A DNA stretch of 12,316 nt, taken from a virus. Shown piece after piece: positions 50-12,266 of this stretch. A program made the translations under genes and the position numbers. The notes under the pieces were generated by a model. It was not told the DNA's origin. It did no database searches and saw only the letters and a list, made by a program, of their open reading frames with translations. The stretch is taken from UHGV virus genome UHGV-0059442. One strand, written 5' to 3'. Positions within the stretch are counted from its first letter, which is position 1; every line of letters begins with the position of its first letter.

Positions 50-532
50 ATGGAAGAACTTCACTTTGTTTACATCAATGCAAATGGTCGTATCGGAGTT
101 CACTCAATACAGAGCATCAGTTATAGCGAAAATCATATACAGGGCATTTGTAAGAACACCGATCGAATAAAAACCTTCCGAAAAGACCGCATTCTTAAAC
201 AGTACGATTCACCAGAACAAGCCATTCAGGAATGCGCGTCATTCCTCCCCGAAAACTACTCACACCTCACTAAGCAGTCTGGTCCGAAAAAAAATACATT
301 CGATGTGTGTTTCACCGGATTTAAGAAAGCAGATAAAGAAAGATTGGTTGATAAGGCGAATGAACAAGGATTAACGGTAAGAACCTCTGTAACCCAAAGC
401 CTTCAGATGCTCTGTTGCGGTTACAATGCAGGCCCATCAAAAGTATCGGCAGCCAGGATGAAAGGCACAATCATCATAGATGAGCCTGGCTTTATACATT
501 TTCTTGAAACGGGTGAGATCCCAGATGAATAA
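50..532 (+). CDS. Hypothetical two-domain protein: N-terminal WYL-like domain, C-terminal BRCT-like domain
   Basis: Complete 160-aa ORF; in-frame stop at 26-28 upstream; AAGAGG Shine-Dalgarno about 7 nt before ATG at 50. N-terminal segment FVYINANGRIGVHSIQSISYSENHIQGICKNTDRIKTFRKDRI fits the WYL-domain pattern ending in R-x-FR-x-DRI. C-terminal segment FDVCFTGFKKADKERLVDKANEQGLTVRTSVTQSLQMLCCGYNAGPSKVSAARMKGTIIIDEPGFIHFL resembles a BRCT fold as found at the C-terminus of NAD-dependent DNA ligases. Noticeably lower GC than the adjacent phage late genes. Confidence 0.5.
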   Translation: MEELHFVYINANGRIGVHSIQSISYSENHIQGICKNTDRIKTFRKDRILKQYDSPEQAIQECASFLPENYSHLTKQSGPKKNTFDVCFTGFKKADKERLVDKANEQGLTVRTSVTQSLQMLCCGYNAGPSKVSAARMKGTIIIDEPGFIHFLETGEIPDE

Positions 533-558: not shown

Positions 559-777
559 TCAAAAATTCATATGCCCCTGACCACCTGGCAATGGATGTGG
601 AGGAGCAGTAGCAATCAGTGCGGGTGTCACAATAAACCGGACCACTGTTTCATGGGTAACAAAAGTGCTCCCGCAGTTAATATTTTGGCACTGGCAGTAA
701 CGCTCTTTGGTGCTTTCAGTTACTTGAAAACTGCTCCTTGTGTGTGCCGCATGACCACACTTTGGACAATTCATCAT
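559..777 (-). CDS. ogr: Ogr/Delta-family zinc-finger late-gene transcriptional activator
   Basis: Translation from the internal Met (MMNCPKCGHAAHTRSS...TKERYCQCQNINCGSTFVTHE...PHPLPGGQ) is about 72 aa with the C-x2-C...C-x4-C arrangement and strong resemblance to P2 Ogr; the 87-aa ORF in the track is an N-terminal over-extension. Putative SD (AGGGA) upstream of ATG at 777. Confidence 0.85.
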   Translation of the reverse strand: MMNCPKCGHAAHTRSSFQVTESTKERYCQCQNINCGSTFVTHETVVRFIVTPALIATAPPHPLPGGQGHMNF

Positions 778-845: not shown

Positions 846-1250
846 TCATTCCATTTCAAGATCATCAATCTTCACTTCGAGTTCAATACTGGTCGTAAAA
901 CCATTATTCAGCGTTTCCCGAAAATCAGCACTTCGCGCCCGGATAGTCAGGCGGTCCGGTGCGCCAGTGTGTTCAATCTCGTCCACTGTGAATGCCCCTT
1001 TCGGGAAAAGCGGCTGCCCCTTCCAGCCCAGCGCCAGCGTAATAACCGCACCACGGCGCGGCAGCACGATTTTTCCGTCAGCGTCATCCAGCTCCAGATC
1101 AAGCTGGTCCGCTTCAAAGCCCCGGTTATCCGTCAGCGTCAAACTCATCAGGCGGTTATCCAGCACAGTGGTGATATCCCTGCCCTCAATACTGATGCTG
1201 AATGCGGGAGTTTTGTTGCCTTTGTTAAGCAGTTCAGAGCTGAAATTCAC
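846..1250 (-). pseudogene. D: Tail protein D (late control gene D family) remnant, only 134 aa; probable internal in-frame deletion
   Basis: N-terminal ~115 aa carry the gpD-family signature (TDNRGFEADQLDLELDD...PRRGA...LGW.G...G.FTVDEIEHTGAPDRLTIRARSADF); the last ~18 aa (GFTTSIELEVKIDDLEME) look like a D-protein acidic C-terminus. Full-length P2-type D proteins are close to 390 aa. GTG start at 1250 overlaps the U stop (GTGA). Confidence 0.7.
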
Positions 1251-1426
1251 GACAGCAGCCCTCCCACCGTTTTACTGATATCGCTTAAGGCAGACGTTGC
1301 CGTGTCCTGCAGATTATTCAGTTGCGCACTGAGATCACCGAACATATCGGACAGGGATTCATCCACTCGTTTGAGCGACAGGGTGAACTCAATCCGGCGC
1401 GGCATACCGTCCCGGATAGAGAAAAA
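1247..1426 (-). pseudogene. U: Tail protein U, C-terminal fragment only
   Basis: PFFSIRDGMPRRIEFTLSLKRVDESLSDMFGDLSAQLNNLQ... matches the C-terminal part of P2-type gpU (the ...RKIDFTLSLTRVDESL... region); the N-terminal two thirds are absent and the frame upstream runs into the J reading frame. Confidence 0.65.
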
Positions 1427-2087
1427 TGGTGGCTTCCACACGGTACGGGATGATTTCTGCACTGCGAACCGTCAGACGGTCAGCCACCGGGCGGACGTTC
1501 TCACTGTTCAGGGCTTTTTCCACCACATCCAGCAGGTCTTTTTCTGCTGTTCCGTCGCCTTCGCGGCTAAGGACTGTCAGCACCACCTCTGCAGGTGCCG
1601 GACTGGTTGCACTGGCATCCGCCACCCGACCGTCGGCGCTTCGGGCATGAAATTCATAAGCTGCAGTTGGCCCCGCAACTGAAAGCCCCTCAAAGGCTGC
1701 AGGCACACGCAGGCGTAACGCTTCATCGCTTTCCATCACAGCTGCAACGGGCGGCACAGCGTCATCATCAGCAGGCGTCACCGTCAGGCGTTTCACGTTG
1801 TAGTTGGCAGCGAGCTGGTCCAGATCGCCGCCCATCGCGTAAGCCACCATCACCGCCTGCGCGGCTTCGTTAATGCGCTGGCGCAGAAGCAACTCACGGT
1901 AAGCGTTCTCCTGCAGCAATTTGGTGACGGGTTCAGATTCCAGTTCCAGCGTGCGGATCACAGCCTCCTGCTCATCTTTCGGATGAAGCGCCACAAATTC
2001 TGCCTTGCGTTCGGCAAGCAGCGTCTCAAAGTCCGGCACATCCACAATCTGCGGCGCAGGCAACTGCGAAAGGTCAATCACTGCCAT
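1389..2087 (-). pseudogene. J: Baseplate assembly protein J, N-terminal ~225 aa only (truncated)
   Basis: MAVIDLSQLPAPQIVDVPDFETLLAERKAEFVALHP...LESEPVTKLLQENAYRELLLRQRINEAAQAVM matches gpJ N-terminus; the ORF stops at 1389 after about 232 aa whereas gpJ is about 300 aa; start ATG at 2087 overlaps the W 3' end. Confidence 0.8.
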
Positions 2088-2433
2088 TCTCTGCTCCTGT
2101 TGATACGGAAAGGGACACAGGCACACCGTTATTCCGCCGCCCGGTCAGCTCCACCACCATTGAACCGTCAAAATTGCTGTTGATGGTGATGGAATCCAGC
2201 GTCAGCCGTGGCTCCCAGCGACTCAGTGCCACATACACAGCCGACATGACCTGCAGGCGTAACGCCGGATTTTGTGGCTGATCTATTAAAGCCGACAGCA
2301 GGGAACCATATTCCCGGCGGGCAATGCGGCTACCCTGCGGTGTCAGCAGAATGTCCCGCACCGACTGGCGCAGATGGTCAATATCAGTAATAGCTTTACC
2401 GCTGGTATTGTTCATCCCGCTATAAAGCGTCAT
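2074..2433 (-). CDS. W: Baseplate wedge protein W (GPW/gp25 family)
   Basis: 119 aa; ...DIDHLRQSVRDILLTPQGSRIARREYGSLLSALIDQPQNPA...RWEPR... is typical of gpW/gp25 lysozyme-like baseplate proteins; ATGA overlap with the V stop. Confidence 0.85.
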   Translation of the reverse strand: MTLYSGMNNTSGKAITDIDHLRQSVRDILLTPQGSRIARREYGSLLSALIDQPQNPALRLQVMSAVYVALSRWEPRLTLDSITINSNFDGSMVVELTGRRNNGVPVSLSVSTGAENGSD

Positions 2434-3008
2434 ACCGGACCTCCGGTGGTATCGCCGCCTTTCAGGACGCCAGTATGCTGATGCGCATCAACCACGATCC
2501 CGTTAGAACTCATCGCTCCGCCGCCCTGGGTAACGCCACCATTGATCACCACTTCGCTGTTAATGCGCGTGCGGTCAGCCTCCAGTACAAACTCACTGGT
2601 TTTCATGGTGATGTTGTCAGCGGCCTCAATGACCATTGATTTGATGCCCCTGACATACCAGCGCCCACTGGCGGGTTCGTATTCAAACCAGCCACCGTCA
2701 GGATGTTCTGTCACGCAGGCGTCCGCCGACGTCGACGGTGGTGCGAACTGATTCGAATAGACAGCGGGCAGCGCAAAGGCCGTCTCCAGATTGCCGCCCA
2801 GACTCAGCAGCACCACCTGCTCACCTTCCGATGGTTTCCACCATGTGCGGGCATTACCCGCGCGCAGCGTCAGCCAGTTAATCCAGTTGGTTTCAAGGTC
2901 GCCCGTTTTCACCCGGCAAAGCCAGTTTTCCCGGTCCACTTCGGTGACTACACCAGTGCGGATCAGGTTGGTGATAAGGCGCATGATTTCGGTTAATTGT
3001 GCGTTCAT
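2430..3008 (-). CDS. V: Baseplate spike/assembly protein V
   Basis: 192 aa; N-terminus MNAQLTEIMRLITNLIRTGVVTEVD...WINWLTLRAGNARTWWKPSEGEQV and C-terminal HTGV...GGDTTGGPV resemble P2 gpV. Confidence 0.85.
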   Translation of the reverse strand: MNAQLTEIMRLITNLIRTGVVTEVDRENWLCRVKTGDLETNWINWLTLRAGNARTWWKPSEGEQVVLLSLGGNLETAFALPAVYSNQFAPPSTSADACVTEHPDGGWFEYEPASGRWYVRGIKSMVIEAADNITMKTSEFVLEADRTRINSEVVINGGVTQGGGAMSSNGIVVDAHQHTGVLKGGDTTGGPV

Positions 3009-3054
3009 AGGGAAAGGTTGCCATCAGGGGAAGAAAGGCGGCAGTGCTGCAACT

Positions 3055-3072
3055 TGTATCAGTGCTGATACA
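3055..3072 (-). promoter_or_regulatory. Candidate Ogr-dependent late promoter element (TGT-N12-ACA dyad) upstream of V
   Basis: TGT (3055-3057) - 12 nt ATCAGTGCTGAT - ACA (3070-3072), embedded in the near-perfect palindrome TTGTATCAG TG CTGATACAA, located in the S-V intergenic gap directly upstream of the V start. Confidence 0.5.
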
Positions 3073-3076
3073 AAGA

Positions 3077-3523
3077 TCATCCCGCCAGCCATTGCAGAAT
3101 CATGTCGCGGGTCATTGCCTCAACATCATCATTTACACCCAGCAGGCGGCGCTCTGCGTAACGGACCTCCGGTCCTTTGCGACTGACGCGATCACGCAGG
3201 CCGTAATGGTGAACACGGGCAATACGCTGCACCTTGCCTTCAAACTGTACGCTGGCAGAGTCGGCGCTGGCGGCAGTTTTCAGGTATTTTGTGGTGCGCA
3301 ACTTTGCAAACATCTGACGTTTGATGCGGCCTTTCTTGCTGCGTGCTGTTACCCTGCGCGGTTCATAACTGCTGCCATCTGGATTGCGCTGCATCCTGAT
3401 ATTCTGCTGCTGTGTCCGGCGCAGTTCCTGCGCCAGCTGGCGCATCATGCGGCTTCTCGTGGCTGGTTCCAGATTCGCCAGCAAGGCACTCAGCCAGTCG
3501 TCCACCTTCTGCAGTTCAGCCAC
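3077..3523 (-). CDS. S: Tail completion / virion morphogenesis protein S
   Basis: 148 aa; position between R and V and the MAELQKVDDWLSALLANLEPATRSRMMRQLAQELRRTQQ... pattern fit the gpS family. Apparent GTG start at 3523, 4 nt after the R stop. Confidence 0.75.
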   Translation of the reverse strand: MAELQKVDDWLSALLANLEPATRSRMMRQLAQELRRTQQQNIRMQRNPDGSSYEPRRVTARSKKGRIKRQMFAKLRTTKYLKTAASADSASVQFEGKVQRIARVHHYGLRDRVSRKGPEVRYAERRLLGVNDDVEAMTRDMILQWLAG

Positions 3524-3947
3524 GTTTCACCGTCCACATTTCTTCAGGTGCATCAGGTTCCGCTATAGCTTCAACGCTCGACACACTGCCGTCAGTGCTG
3601 ACCAGCACACGTTCCGTCAGTTGCAGGTTCAGGCTGATATCACAGACATCGTTGCGCAGAATATCCACCTCAAAGGTGAATAGCTTTTCCCGTAACGCCG
3701 GGTTATTGATGGCATCGGGCTGGTTATCCCTCAGCCACAGCAAAACCGGGGCCATCAGCAGATTCTGGTCGCCGCTGAAATCCTCAATCACCGCGTTCAG
3801 TGTGTAACGGTACTCCCACGACATGGAGCTGGCCCCCGTGGCAACCAGCGAACCGTTATCCACAAACAGATGCAGTTTGTCCGGGTTATTGCGGACATAA
3901 GGCACCGCTTTATTGAGGGCGTGGCGCAGGGATTGTGGTTTGTTCAC
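3516..3947 (-). CDS. R: Tail completion protein R
   Basis: ...KPQSLRHALNKAVPYVRNNPDKLHLFVDNGS...YRYTLNAVIEDFSGD...PVLLWLRDNQPD resembles P2 gpR; I place the start at the GTG at 3947, preceded by an AGGAG SD, rather than the upstream start at 3968. Confidence 0.75.
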   Translation of the reverse strand: MNKPQSLRHALNKAVPYVRNNPDKLHLFVDNGSLVATGASSMSWEYRYTLNAVIEDFSGDQNLLMAPVLLWLRDNQPDAINNPALREKLFTFEVDILRNDVCDISLNLQLTERVLVSTDGSVSSVEAIAEPDAPEEMWTVKRG

Positions 3948-4200
3948 TGTTTCGCTCCTGACACGCAATAATCATGTCCACTTTGTCTGCACAGACCGCC
4001 CAGGCGGCCTCCGTTTCATCCAGCAACGCGTTCAGGCCACCGTTAGTGCGCGGCGCTGCCTGTCCCAGCCGACACGGCGTCACTCGCGGACAACCACTGA
4101 CGGTAAGCTGCACCTCCGGTGAGTGTGGGGCGTTCCCGCAGCCGGATAATGTCAGCAGGCAAAGGTGTATCAGCCCAGCGGCGTAAATCCTCGTTCTCAC
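3910..4200 (-). CDS. lysC: Outer-membrane lipoprotein spanin (Rz1-like), embedded out of frame in lysB and overlapping R
   Basis: Signal peptide with lipobox (MRTRIYAAGLIHLCLLTLSGC), Pro-rich mature part; nested in the +1 frame of lysB and extending into R exactly as P2 lysC does. Start uncertain (apparent GTG at 4200). Confidence 0.65.
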   Translation of the reverse strand: MRTRIYAAGLIHLCLLTLSGCGNAPHSPEVQLTVSGCPRVTPCRLGQAAPRTNGGLNALLDETEAAWAVCADKVDMIIACQERNSEQTTIPAPRPQ

Positions 4201-4471
4201 GTTTCAGTTCCTCAATCCGGTGTTGTCGTTGTCTCAGCAGTACACTGGTCTGTTCTGCTTCGGCATAGAGCCGCGCCTGCTCCCGGTTATTGGTTTCAGT
4301 CAGAATGGACAGGCTGATAAGCTGGCTATTGCTCTTTGCCAGTGCCTGGCTTTTGCTCTGCAGCTCGTCTGCCTGCGTGCTGATGGTCTGGCTGGCATCA
4401 GCCAGCCGCCACGTCTGCCAGCCCAGCGCCGCCAGTAATAACGCCAGCACAACCAGCAGCAACCGGTTCAT
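4043..4471 (-). CDS. lysB: Inner-membrane spanin (Rz-like)
   Basis: 142 aa; N-terminal transmembrane helix (MNRLLLVVLALLLAALGWQTW) followed by coiled-coil-like, Q/E/R-rich periplasmic domain; position immediately upstream of R with lysC embedded. Confidence 0.8.
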   Translation of the reverse strand: MNRLLLVVLALLLAALGWQTWRLADASQTISTQADELQSKSQALAKSNSQLISLSILTETNNREQARLYAEAEQTSVLLRQRQHRIEELKRENEDLRRWADTPLPADIIRLRERPTLTGGAAYRQWLSASDAVSAGTGSAAH

Positions 4472-4575
4472 GCTGATACCTGTTGCGCCATCTGATTACG
4501 GGTGATCCAGAAGGCAATAACGGTCAGTAGATAAAAGACCAGGGTAATAGCCCACCCCGTCCAGCGCCAATCGCT
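4471..4575 (-). pseudogene. Remnant 3' end of the gene preceding lysB (lysA-like membrane protein), ~33 codons
   Basis: Reading the minus strand in the frame whose TGA overlaps the lysB ATG (ATGA) gives ...DWRWTGWAITLVFYLLTVIAFWITRNQMAQQVSA*, a hydrophobic helix tail. The frame is closed by a stop about 35 codons upstream and there is no start, so only a C-terminal stub remains. Confidence 0.4.
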
Positions 4576-5084
4576 TTATGCAGACGCGCCCGTGACTGGT
4601 CCGGCATATCCAGACCGTCTGTCAGCTCCAGCGTCTGCAACAACAGATCGGCATCAAAGCCGGTGGCGGCAAGCATTGCGCTCTGCGCGGCGTCTGCCAT
4701 TTCCTCTGCCAGCACGGTCTGCACGTTGCGGTTACCCAGCGGCATCACCCAGCCATGACGCAGGGCATGACGCCCGATCTCCAGCGCCCCGGCATAATCT
4801 CCGGCATCAATGCGCCACAGCATCACGTACATCAGCACGTCATCCTGTTGAGCGCCTCCGGCAGCCAGGACACCCTCTGCCCAGGCGGCGTACTTCGGCA
4901 GCAGCTCCACCTTGATTTCCGCTTTTTTGACCGTGGACTGAACGCCCTTGAGACGGCGGCGGTCTTCCGCCAGTTGCAGCAGCATCAGGTCATAGCCCGA
5001 TGCGTGGCGAACACTGCCGCCCTCGCGGGCGGCCTGTTCAGCCTGAACGCGCAGGCGATGCTGCCGTGCGGGACTCAGGCTCAT
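4524..5084 (-). pseudogene. M: Terminase endonuclease (small) subunit M, C-terminally truncated
   Basis: MSLSPARQHRLRVQAEQAAREGG...LLPKYAAWAEGVLAAGGAQQDDVLMYVMLWRIDAGDYAGALEIGRHALRHG... matches P2 gpM over about 175 aa, then ends in a non-matching tail (...GRGGLLPWSFIY*) at 186 aa; P2 gpM is about 250 aa. Confidence 0.8.
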
Positions 5085-5087
5085 GGA

Positions 5088-6146
5088 TTACGCTCCGGTT
5101 TCGGCTGCGGCGGCGCTGAAATCACCAATCTGGATGTTTTCCACCAGTGCGGCGCAGCGGTAGTCCTCAACCACATAGGCTTCATTAACGGATTCAAAGT
5201 TTTCAATCCGGTCACGTTTCGGGTTGTCGATAACTGAACGGCGGCGGGTGTCTTCCTGCCAGTAGATGGACAGGTTATCCAGACGGGTGATCAGCAGCGC
5301 ATTCGGCGGGAAGAACGGCGCACGCACGGCCTGCAGGCCACCCATGCGTTTCTGGCTGATGATCATATCGGCAGCCAGTTTTTCACTGTTTTCCTGCTCT
5401 TTGTTGACCAGCGGGAAATACTTGTCAGACAACAGTTCACGACCGCAAATCACCACCAGATCGTCATCGTCCTGGTAAACCACGTCGATAAGCTCATTGA
5501 CGGCATCCATCACCACAGCGTCCAGGTTGGCATATTCGCCACCTTTCCCGACTTTCACCGCACCCGGAGTGGTTTCACCGCCCGTGGTGGTGCTGCCCAT
5601 GACGTGATCCGGTGCATCCTCACGGATTTTCTGCAGCCAGCCTTTGTTCACATCCTGCAGCAGCGGGTTTTCGCTACGGTTGGAGGTTTTCGCACGCTTC
5701 ACGCCGTTAAAGCCGATCATGATGCGGTCCAGTGCCTGACGTTTCACGATGGCGTCACGGATGCGCACCTGGAAATCCTGAAACTTCGCCCACAGATCCA
5801 GCTTCGCGTAGGTCAGCACCGTGTCAAAGTTGGTCTGCTCGCATTTATATTCCACATCGACCATCAGGGTCGGATCGACGGGTTCACGCTCTTTCGCGGT
5901 GGTGTCAGTGGTTCCGGCAATGGTGCTGCCAACACCCAGCCCCAGCAGCTGACCGGACTGCTCAGTCACTGGCGTGACGTTAATCAGCGTCAGGAAAGCG
6001 GCGGACTGCTGGATCTGGTCCTCCAGCGTCTGCTGCACAGACGGCTCCACAGTGAATTTGCTGGACAGTTCTTCAACTGCCACACCGTTCAGACGCGCCA
6101 GCTGCTGCAGGTAAGCGTTAAAAGCAAAGCGGGTATTCTTCTTCAT
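5088..6146 (-). CDS. N: Major capsid protein N
   Basis: 352 aa, size and sequence typical of P2 gpN; immediately downstream of O, with its stop 3 nt before the M start. Confidence 0.9.
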   Translation of the reverse strand: MKKNTRFAFNAYLQQLARLNGVAVEELSSKFTVEPSVQQTLEDQIQQSAAFLTLINVTPVTEQSGQLLGLGVGSTIAGTTDTTAKEREPVDPTLMVDVEYKCEQTNFDTVLTYAKLDLWAKFQDFQVRIRDAIVKRQALDRIMIGFNGVKRAKTSNRSENPLLQDVNKGWLQKIREDAPDHVMGSTTTGGETTPGAVKVGKGGEYANLDAVVMDAVNELIDVVYQDDDDLVVICGRELLSDKYFPLVNKEQENSEKLAADMIISQKRMGGLQAVRAPFFPPNALLITRLDNLSIYWQEDTRRRSVIDNPKRDRIENFESVNEAYVVEDYRCAALVENIQIGDFSAAAAETGA

Positions 6147-6162
6147 CGGGTTTTGTGCTCCA

Positions 6163-6996
6163 TCAGCAATTGGTCAGAGTGTCAGCGGGGGCGTTACCGC
6201 CTGTTGCACGCTGGCGGTAGTCCTGGCGGCTGTCTACATGACTCAGCTTATTCACCAGTTCGTTAAAGGCGGTCTGCTGTGCCTGCAGGGCAGTCTCCAG
6301 CTCAGACAGACGTTCTTCCTGCTCAGACAGGGATTTTTCGGTGCGTGCGCTCAGGTTCTGCTGCTCAGTGGCGACCAGCTCCACGGCCTTATGCACATCA
6401 GAGAACCGGGCGTCATCGGACTGCTCTTTTTTGGTAAACAGCGCCGTGACGCGGGCAAACAGGGACGGTTTGTCGTCCTGGACTTCTTCCAGTTCGATCA
6501 CCGTTTCCTCTGCGGCGGTAAAGAGATTGGCGGGATTCTGCTTGCGGTTTGCCAGCGGGTTATGGGCTGCACTGGCGCTGAATGTCAGCATTTCAGTGCC
6601 CAGACTGGCAGGGTCATCAGTGGCAGCCAGGCCGACCAGGTAGGCTTTGCCCGTATCAGCGAACTTCGGGCTGACTTCCATAGAGGTGAATAATTTCTGG
6701 CCTTTTTTCACCAGCTCCACCAGGGACTCCGTTGGCTCAACGTCGGCATACAGCGCCATCTTGCCTGCCAGCGGACCTTCCGTGATTTCTTCAGCAAACA
6801 GCGCCGTCACCTTGCCGTAGCGGTTAAAGGTGCTGTCCGGCAGATAAGACTTGATGTGCTCAAGGTTAATCAGCGCGGTATACACCGCCGGGTTATAGCT
6901 GGCTGCCATCTGTTCCAGCCATTCACGCTGGATTTCGCGTCCGTCGGTGGTGGCACCTTCCACCCCGATGCGAAAACGCTTTGCTTTCACTGTCAT
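6163..6996 (-). CDS. O: Capsid scaffolding protein O
   Basis: 277 aa; FRIGVEGATTDGREI...INLEH...YLVGLAATDDPASLGTE...SDDARFSDVH...ATGG...TNC closely resembles P2 gpO; GGAG SD about 9 nt upstream of ATG at 6996. Confidence 0.9.
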   Translation of the reverse strand: MTVKAKRFRIGVEGATTDGREIQREWLEQMAASYNPAVYTALINLEHIKSYLPDSTFNRYGKVTALFAEEITEGPLAGKMALYADVEPTESLVELVKKGQKLFTSMEVSPKFADTGKAYLVGLAATDDPASLGTEMLTFSASAAHNPLANRKQNPANLFTAAEETVIELEEVQDDKPSLFARVTALFTKKEQSDDARFSDVHKAVELVATEQQNLSARTEKSLSEQEERLSELETALQAQQTAFNELVNKLSHVDSRQDYRQRATGGNAPADTLTNC

Positions 6997-7009
6997 GAGC
7001 CGTGCTCCG

Positions 7010-7432
7010 TTAGAAAAAACTTACTGGAGCCTTATGGTTGCGGTGATAGGGGCAGTGAAACAATGCGCGGTATTTGTACCGACAACCGTGACGATTGAGA
7101 TACAGGAAATATACCGCTTTCATGAAATCAGTAATTTCAGTTGAGTAATTAAACTCCTGCCTTATGTTGTAATAAGCTACCTCCCTGTTTGCGATCTCAA
7201 ATAAAACTCTGGCGCGAGATATAAACGATTCACAATCAGCGGCAACCTTTTTATAGAGGTTGATTAAATCAGGATTAATATCCGCAACCAGATAGCTGGG
7301 GTAATCCGTCTCCATCATCACAGCACAGGAACCCGCGAAAGGTTCAACCAGTCGCGGGCCAGCAGGAAGGTGTTTTTTCAGTTCGGACATAATGGCGGTT
7401 TTATTTCCCGCCCATTTCAGGATGGTGCTCAT
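7010..7432 (-). pseudogene. dam: DNA adenine methyltransferase (Dam, D12 class), N-terminal ~120 aa only
   Basis: From the internal Met: MSTILKWAGNKTAIMSELKKHLPAGPRLVEPFAGSCAVMMETDYPSYLVADINPDLINLYKKV...FLYLNRHGCRY... carries the AdoMet-binding motif (EPFAGS) and aligns with the first part of E. coli Dam, but the ORF ends at 7010 without the catalytic DPPY motif. Start ATGA-overlaps the upstream traR-like gene. Confidence 0.8.
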
Positions 7433-11039: not shown

Positions 11040-12266
11040 ATGACTCTCCATCAAACTTTATCTAAAGAATTAAGAGATTTATTTGTTAGTATTTTAAGAC
11101 GTTCTCTTTTTCGCCCCCCCATCAAAATAAATGGGGATATAGTCTCTGATTTTTCAAACAGATGCGAGCAGTTCAAAGAGTGCCTAAATGAATACATTTG
11201 TGATAACAATAATGCTGCTTCCGAAAGAGTTAAGCCAAGAATTAAAACTATTGAAAAAATACAACATGGATTAACTAATTCTCTTAAAGCATTTTTATCT
11301 GGCGACATTAAAGGAGCCTACGATATTTTTGATGAAGTTTTATCATACCCTACTGTCTATAGACATCTAAGAAGAATATCCATTCCACTAAAAGAAATAT
11401 GTAATAAGCACAAGCCTTTATTCAGGGTAAGAAAGTCAGATAGACCAGTCGTAACAAGAAAGGAAATATTTCATATCCCATTCACTCATCGACATCTTGT
11501 CAATGCTCAACGCTACTCCGTTGCAGGTTTGCCATGCCTTTACTTAGGTTCATCTCTCTATATATGCTGGCAGGAAATGGATAAACCTGACTTTGATAAA
11601 TTATACCTATCATCATTTATATCTTGGGATGAGGAATCTTATATTTTAAATTTAGCTGCAGATTTTCTTTACAGTAGAACCGCTAAAGGATTTTACGGTG
11701 ATATTAGTAATAGAGATAACCTCATTAAAATATCATATTTAACTTTATGGCCTCTGATAATTGCATGTAATTATTTAAAGCAGAATGAAAACTCTTCATT
11801 TAATCAAGAATATATCATCCCAAATTTGTTAATGCAGTGGATAAGTCGACTTGAAGATAGAGCTATTGTCGGCATAGCATATCGCTCAACAAAAATAAAA
11901 AGAACAGCAAACTCACACTTAGCAACTAATGTCGTCTTGCCTCCAAAAGTAAACTATGAAGATACAATCACAAAACCTTATTGTCAGAAACTATTGTCAA
12001 TGTTTGAGTTTACTCAACCTGTATCATGGCAGGTTTTGAAAACATTAGACTATAAAATTGATAATGAAATAAATCAAGAGCAAGAAAAAGCAATTCATTT
12101 ACTAAAACAGAAAGAAAGATTAAGTGGCATACAAGATTTAAATGAAGATCTTATAAACCTTTATCCTTTAACAGACTTCTACAAGCTAGAACAGTGCATG
12201 GATCGCCTGCTACAGTATGATGTACTTGAGATAAAATCTGGCGGCACTTTGGCGGCAGAGCATTAA
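11040..12266 (+). CDS. RES-domain protein with N- and C-terminal extensions (putative standalone toxin/defence effector)
   Basis: 408-aa ORF, ATG 3 nt after the int stop; strongly AT-rich. Central region shows RES-domain hallmarks: LFRVRK..., AQRYSVAGLPCLYLGSSLYICWQEM (compare the G-R-W-N...P-x-L-Y...E core of RES toxins) and the C-terminal motif IAYRSTKIKRTANSHLATNVVLPP (compare ...PSA...N-x-V-L). About 125 aa upstream and 100 aa downstream of the RES core are unassigned. Confidence 0.6.
   Translation: MTLHQTLSKELRDLFVSILRRSLFRPPIKINGDIVSDFSNRCEQFKECLNEYICDNNNAASERVKPRIKTIEKIQHGLTNSLKAFLSGDIKGAYDIFDEVLSYPTVYRHLRRISIPLKEICNKHKPLFRVRKSDRPVVTRKEIFHIPFTHRHLVNAQRYSVAGLPCLYLGSSLYICWQEMDKPDFDKLYLSSFISWDEESYILNLAADFLYSRTAKGFYGDISNRDNLIKISYLTLWPLIIACNYLKQNENSSFNQEYIIPNLLMQWISRLEDRAIVGIAYRSTKIKRTANSHLATNVVLPPKVNYEDTITKPYCQKLLSMFEFTQPVSWQVLKTLDYKIDNEINQEQEKAIHLLKQKERLSGIQDLNEDLINLYPLTDFYKLEQCMDRLLQYDVLEIKSGGTLAAEH

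Follow-up and report, generated by a model that had tools for sequence, protein, structure and literature searches.

The question raised by this locus is why two distant tail genes of P2-type phages meet in overlapping frames. In a stretch of viral DNA of 12,316 nt (UHGV-0059442, called the window and taken at its full length), the reading frame of the baseplate gene J ends at position 1389 after a short non-matching tail, and the C-terminal part of tail protein U lies in an overlapping frame, as an earlier note had described at the same positions. Such a frame switch may be a programmed frameshift, a fused gene or the trace of a deletion. Very probably, it is the scar of an 8-10 kb deletion in a decaying P2-like prophage of the E. 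coli chromosome. The event is ordinary and of a kind already known, not a new mechanism. Four features surround the switch:

2430-3008, minus strand: V, intact baseplate gene (tblastn, full length, 99.5%).
2074-2433, minus strand: W, intact baseplate gene (tblastn, full length, 100%).
1389..2087, minus strand: J', truncated baseplate gene J (ORF list, blastp, Pfam and gene caller on identical contigs).
1247..1411, minus strand: 'U, 3' fragment of tail gene U, codons 108-161 and stop (DNA identity, blastp and PHROGs).

Along the minus strand, the genes follow one another as V (3008-2430), W (2433-2074), J', the ORF overlapping J' (1462-1247), a D-like ORF (1250-846) and ogr (777-559). W and V are located upstream of J' in a common operon, with the gene order of P2. 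J' itself is contained in an ORF (1389..2126) whose ATG at 2087 gives a product of 232 aa, identical to that predicted by a gene caller on identical contigs. This product is constituted of 226 native codons (2087 to 1410) followed by six foreign codons, RYAAPD, read out of frame from U DNA, and by a stop at 1391-1389. Pfam recognizes the Baseplate_J family in it (E=1e-16). Compared with intact gpJ (302 aa), residues 1-226 are 98.7% identical to the protein of the E. coli TUM2820 prophage, 96.5% to that of Klebsiella phage 4LV2017 and 63.6% to that of P2. The blastp alignment with intact gpJ covers residues 1-231 of 302, and J' is not a full-length gpJ, with its 226 native residues and six foreign ones. 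Nor could the correction of a putative sequencing frameshift restore the protein, because the last 76 codons of J are absent from the window.

The overlapping ORF (1247..1462, minus strand, 71 aa) is in frame +1 relative to J and covers the end of J' over 73 nt. It matches residues 102-161 of the 161 residues of gpU, with 92% identity in close relatives (E=3e-37) and E=6e-14 for gpU of P2, and is assigned by PHROGs to phrog_76 'tail protein' (E=1e-17); the DNA of the U fragment is 99.8% identical to the annotated gpU gene of Escherichia phage 500465-1. The proposal that this product derives from gpU therefore stands, except at its N-terminal side. There, the peptide that had been attributed to U is correct for the C-terminus of the protein, but 'PFFSI', within the ORF start 'KPPFFSI', is encoded by J DNA in the wrong frame (+1). 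The first codon derived from U is that of D108 (1411-1409), and the preceding R is specified by a J-derived CGG that replaces the CGC of U by chance. The fragment is not a full-length gpU with its own start: codons 108-161 are the sole U-derived part and the native start is absent. Pfam does not find the GpU family in the U fragment, where its one match, the sub-threshold Baculo_PEP_C, is noise, and finds no family in D', the truncated D gene described below. The identities of both the U fragment and D' were settled by PHROGs and direct alignment.

Four references served to locate the junction: phage 500465-1 (L001), phage 4LV2017 (L002), the intact prophage of E. coli TUM2820 (L010) and P2 (L011). 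To locate the breakpoint, the window was aligned jointly with the J region and the U region of each of the first three, and two features were recognized:

1409..1411, no strand: deletion junction with 3 nt of microhomology and no filler DNA (three-way alignments).
1394..1416, no strand: stretch matching both parents imperfectly (BLAST alignments overlapping over 23 nt).

The J parent matches the window down to 1409 and the U parent up to 1411, and the shared trinucleotide is GAC on the gene strand (GTC on the plus strand). It connects J codon 226 to U codon 108, out of frame. Similarity between the two parents extends around this point, with 7/8 nt alike in TCCG(G/C)GAC (1416-1409) and, by a count from the printed sequences, 17/23 alike over the 23 nt of 1394..1416. 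The breakpoint thus falls at the lower edge of the interval 1410-1430 predicted earlier, and a search for microhomology between the two breakpoints returned 3 nt when exact and 7/8 when imperfect. The flanks and their collinearity with intact relatives are read directly in these alignments. Window positions 905-1416 correspond to the D-U region (99.8% identity to 500465-1, 96.1% to 4LV2017 and 97.9% to TUM2820), and positions 1394 to about 4564 correspond to J through lysA (96.3, 96.1 and 99.2% identity, respectively).

In phage 500465-1, these flanks are about 10 kb apart. The DNA missing from the window amounts to 8,448 bp in comparison with 4LV2017, 9,355 bp with TUM2820 and 10,060 bp with 500465-1, and to ~10.7 kb when counted on P2 from J codon 226 to U codon 108. 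This agrees with the separation of about ten kilobases between J and U given in the earlier note, and the flanks lying 8.4-10.1 kb apart in three intact relatives bear out its main claim of a deletion scar rather than a programmed frameshift. Lost are the C-terminus of J, I, H, G, the tail-fibre assembly genes, the invertase, FI, FII, E/E', T and the N-terminus of U. The list given previously named I, H, G, FI, FII, E/E' and T, which are indeed absent, and omitted the invertase and the tail-fibre assembly genes. When the proteins of TUM2820 were searched by tblastn over the whole window, I, H, G, the invertase, FI, FII, E, E' and T were not found, and neither were J residues 232-302 and U residues 1-101; the absence of the intervening genes is in this sense a direct observation. 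Collinear flanks, a short shared sequence, and the lack of filler DNA and of mobile-element ends make up the signature of a microhomology deletion scar.

The element that carries this scar is P2/186-like (Peduoviridae). Membership relies on the gene order O-N-M...R-S-V-W-J...U-D-ogr with int/cI at the other end, on Pfam families, and on 96-99.8% DNA identity over the retained segments to 500465-1 (Wadgaonvirus), 4LV2017 (Elveevirus) and the TUM2820 prophage; P2 has the same order V-W-J...U-D-ogr. Between J and U, intact Peduoviridae have I, H, G, (invertase), FI, FII, E/E' and T; they also possess L, X, Y, K, P, Q and A. None of these genes is present in the window. There, the essential genes P, Q, L, X, I, H, G, FI, FII, E, T and A gave no tblastn match. 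The window is a remnant and not a functional member of the family. The element, bounded by att sites and coinciding nearly exactly with the window, measures about 12.4 kb, as opposed to 33-37 kb in intact relatives. The contig flank (smpB, ratA, rnfH, bamE, recN, nadK, grpE ... ffh) is 99.8% identical to that of E. coli NCTC9038. On the left, the tmRNA gene ends at a distance of 75 bp from window position 1, and the 47-bp att core, on the tmRNA side, is the 3' end of ssrA; intact relatives have the same 47-bp core 86-132 bp past a 408-aa ORF at their right end.

Genes at the borders of the element are worth a brief description. The 408-aa ORF (11040-12266, plus strand) follows the integrase directly, close to attL on its inner side. 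Neither Pfam nor PADLOC gives a match, and the product corresponds to phrog_7835 (unknown function). Within the collection, 994 blocks contain the exact protein; four E. coli genomes among them have it at this same place, in prophages whose dam and A are full-length. The ORF is thus a widespread cargo gene. At the other border, between ogr and the att on the ssrA side, a 160-aa ORF (50-532, plus strand) has a BRCT-like C-terminal half (Pfam E=1e-3, sub-threshold), matches phrog_2561 'DNA ligase' (E=2e-77) and resembles the C-terminal part of the PADLOC candidate PDC-S48 (E=2e-7). In phage 500465-1 its annotation is 'DNA ligase', for which the protein is far too short. Beyond the right end of the window, four genomes (L012-L015, 7230-7420) diverge past the 47-bp att core into different islands, which carry a further integrase, a P4-like satellite (Psu and Ogr/Delta genes) or gtr genes for O-antigen modification. 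This divergence indicates that ssrA is a tandem integration hotspot.

The J-U junction is one of four deletions in the remnant. The three others, together with the intact late-gene activator, are the following:

559..777, minus strand: ogr, late-gene activator of 72 aa, intact (Pfam Ogr_Delta E=9e-21, tblastn).
846..1250, minus strand: D', tail gene D lacking 693 bp (231 codons) internally, with the frame kept; junction at 905-907, TAT.
4562-4564: lysA' to M' scar, CAG, 1,886 bp lost.
7084-7087: scar from upstream of O to truncated dam, AACC, about 9.4-9.8 kb lost.

D' retains residues 1-115 of the protein, followed directly by its last ~19. At the second scar, the end of lysA meets codon ~174 of the gene for the terminase small subunit M, with loss of the M C-terminus, L, X, Y, K (holin, endolysin) and the lysA N-terminus. 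The third connects the region upstream of O, which encodes the scaffold, with the middle of dam, a methylase gene, with loss of P, Q, cos, cargo and the replication gene A. Microhomology is 3 nt at the J-U junction and 3, 3 and 4 nt at the others. Taken alone, 3 nt are weak evidence (P about 0.05); according to our own calculation, a random blunt join leaves at least 3 ambiguous nucleotides with P=0.051, and all four junctions would do so with P about 7e-6. Because each of the four reaches at least 3 nt, this supports microhomology-mediated illegitimate recombination as the general decay mode of the remnant. Illegitimate deletion in E. coli proceeds by replication slippage between short repeats or by alternative end joining. 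As in microhomology-mediated deletions of this bacterium, the window has clean joins with 3-4 nt at its four junctions, without filler or mobile-element ends.

The following origin is proposed. In a P2/186-like (Peduoviridae) prophage integrated at ssrA of E. coli, illegitimate, microhomology-mediated recombination would have joined J codon 226 to U codon 108, with the crossover at GAC inside the imperfect repeat TCCG(G/C)GAC. About 8.4-10.1 kb carrying the tail-fibre, sheath, tube and tape-measure genes was lost. The mechanism is deduced from the microhomology and the clean join; its likely route would be replication slippage or microhomology-guided end joining, and the recombination pathway (slippage, end joining or RecA-independent recombination) cannot be read from sequence. 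That the deletion was single is likewise deduced, as the parsimonious reading, which cannot be proven. Because the join is out of frame, J' ends after its six foreign codons and the U fragment is left without its own start. Judging from sequence, neither J' nor the U fragment would be expected to function, and the element is no longer able to build a tail.

The nearest reference changes at the junction. On the U-D side, phage 500465-1 is closest (99.8%, with 97.9% for TUM2820), while on the J-to-O side (1394-7087) TUM2820 is closest (99.1-99.2%, with 96.3-98.2% for 500465-1). With a J side resembling TUM2820 and a U-D-ogr side resembling 500465-1, the progenitor was mosaic. An intact progenitor with exactly these alleles was not recovered, so the true length of the deleted DNA is bracketed by the lengths given above.

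Among the alternatives to a single deletion, a two-step origin has to be weighed first. E. coli NCTC9038 carries at ssrA a remnant whose J runs into the final ~219 nt of T, and its J endpoint (L006 12600-12640), ...ATCCGGGA/AAGG, is 1 bp from that of the window, ...ATCCGGGAC/GG (the slash marks the join). A J-T deletion might thus have come first, as in NCTC9038, followed by a loss of about 535 bp between the TCCGGGA of the J-T join and TCCGCGA in U; a repeat-to-repeat deletion there would yield the exact window sequence, and the two remnants share their site, with host flanks 99.8% identical. The alleles speak against this scenario. J' differs between the two remnants at four sites in its last 70 nt, and the J allele of the window is that of the intact J of TUM2820 and 2017.04.02CC up to the breakpoint. 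Moreover, the prophage parts are 91-98% identical, in contrast to 99.8% for the chromosomal flank, which indicates that the prophages of the window and of NCTC9038 are separate. Common descent of the two scars was rejected on these grounds of allele differences and prophage-versus-flank divergence. Among 1,030 E. coli records with this J stretch, seven do not cover in full the 241 bp that surround the site, and NCTC9038 is the one of the seven truncated exactly there; no further complete E. coli genome has a junction of its type, and an intermediate with the alleles of the window was not found among 5,426 complete E. coli genomes. A two-step origin is accordingly quite improbable.

The single deletion being the preferred reading, the proximity of the J endpoints in the window and in NCTC9038 raises the further possibility that breakpoints are directed to certain sites, either quasi-sites of the prophage's own Cin/Gin-type invertase with a GA core, or hairpins at J and U. 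At the crossover, the endpoints in J, U and T share GA as part of CCG(G/C)GA, which reads CCGGGA in J and CCGCGA in its T and U partners. Near-coincidence is seen for two pairs of endpoints, those in J (window and NCTC9038) and those in T, where a third deletion, in isolate F247 (L018 6100-6110), ends about 7 nt from that of NCTC9038. In J, TTCTC precedes GA by 12 nt, as in the native inversion sites, which read TTCTCACATACC-TT-GGTTTGGGAGAA and partner. When 19,274 positions were ranked with a weight matrix built from four native half-sites, however, the ranks were 734 for the J site, 9,872 for that in U and 6,058 for that in T, no better than background. Apart from the shared GA core, the endpoints do not resemble the native 26-bp sites of serine invertases (Cin/Gin/Hin-type), and a gap of ~7 nt between T endpoints does not fit one fixed crossover dinucleotide. 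As to hairpins, single-stranded DNA beside the endpoints folds slightly better than shuffled sequence in J (-7.3 kcal/mol) and in U (-9.3 kcal/mol), with z about -2 in both cases, but no hairpin is found at the T site (z=+0.2). The coincidence itself is less striking than it seems, as the search saw only J endpoints within roughly 110 bp, which brings its probability to about 0.03 and not 0.003. Direction of the endpoints by invertase or hairpin is therefore very improbable.

A degenerate-pattern scan for other truncations at the J site gave two unrelated chance matches, one in GTDB representatives and one in JGI metagenomes. The near-coincident J endpoints of the window and NCTC9038 hint that the choice of site is not purely random. 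It is tempting to propose that J codon 226, at the 5' foot of the GC-rich hairpin CCGG-GA-CCG-GAAG-CGG-AG-CCGG, and CCGCGA in T and U are recurrent deletion endpoints in P2-like prophages, in which case the tail module would be lost preferentially via a few structure-prone sites and not randomly. This proposal is unlikely to hold, and the recurrent J endpoint is a weak hint, not a finding.

A functional frame switch, by programmed +1 frameshift or as a selected J-U fusion protein, has a far smaller chance than either alternative above. The U frame is open from 1462 and overlaps the end of J' by 73 nt, and P2-type phages do use one programmed frameshift, that of E/E'. The overlap, however, is J DNA read out of frame, and in every intact relative the two halves belong to separate genes 8-10 kb apart. 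The comparison with E/E' is instructive. The programmed -1 frameshift of P2 E/E' (tail assembly chaperone) likewise involves overlapping frames in the tail gene region of the same phage family, but it is conserved in all relatives and its frames are native neighbours, whereas the J-U arrangement joins genes 8-10 kb apart, requires a +1 shift and is conserved in no intact phage. The E/E' site itself is inside the DNA deleted from the window. Truncation of the same kind affects the neighbours D, M, lysA and dam. The distribution of the junction also argues against function. BLAST did not find it in 5,426 complete E. coli genomes, nor was it present in 55 matching phage records of the phage collection, and exact-junction scans did not find it in GTDB representative genomes or IMG/VR. 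Carriers, as found by exact-sequence look-up of the 232-aa J' protein only, are three independent assemblies with the identical junction, ENA ERZ919766 (human gut), ENA ERZ1314529 and Logan SRR31145707, which are 100% identical to the window over 12,087, 12,087 and 4,163 bp, junction included. They represent one clone. Frames that come from genes 8.4-10.1 kb apart, in an arrangement confined to three assemblies of the same clone, do not correspond to a programmed ribosomal frameshift.

The direct observation of the same junction in three independent assemblies from different projects excludes an artefact (a collapsed assembly, or a single-base error mimicking truncation), a notion with practically no credit left even though all exact matches come from metagenome assemblies, as the 3 exact nucleotides shared by the parents (17/23 imperfectly) are far too few to mislead an assembler and a point error cannot remove 8-10 kb.

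The deletion in the window has counterparts in other cryptic prophages. That most bacterial chromosomes carry cryptic prophages devoid of the genes needed for progeny is textbook knowledge (PMC6832061). The literature retrieved consists of general papers on cryptic prophages, with nothing on the J-U junction. Cryptic P2/186-like prophages of E. coli (NCTC9038, F247, 2017.04.02CC, and YZ_2_2 at ybjL) belong to the same family and have the same gene order, and the NCTC9038 remnant occupies the same ssrA site as the window. Their internal deletions, which are independent, also end within genes of the tail module, where J or T persists as a truncated pseudogene, but none of these prophages has the exact J-U junction. 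The window is also more reduced, with about 12.4 kb remaining and four separate deletions.

These results bear on how such elements are described. J' (1389-2087) and the U fragment (1247-1411) should be annotated as pseudogene pieces of one deletion rather than as a gene with a frameshift or a fusion. The whole window is to be read as a tail-less, non-replicating and non-packaging P2-like remnant at ssrA. With four clean microhomology deletions in one element, it provides a worked example of prophage decay.
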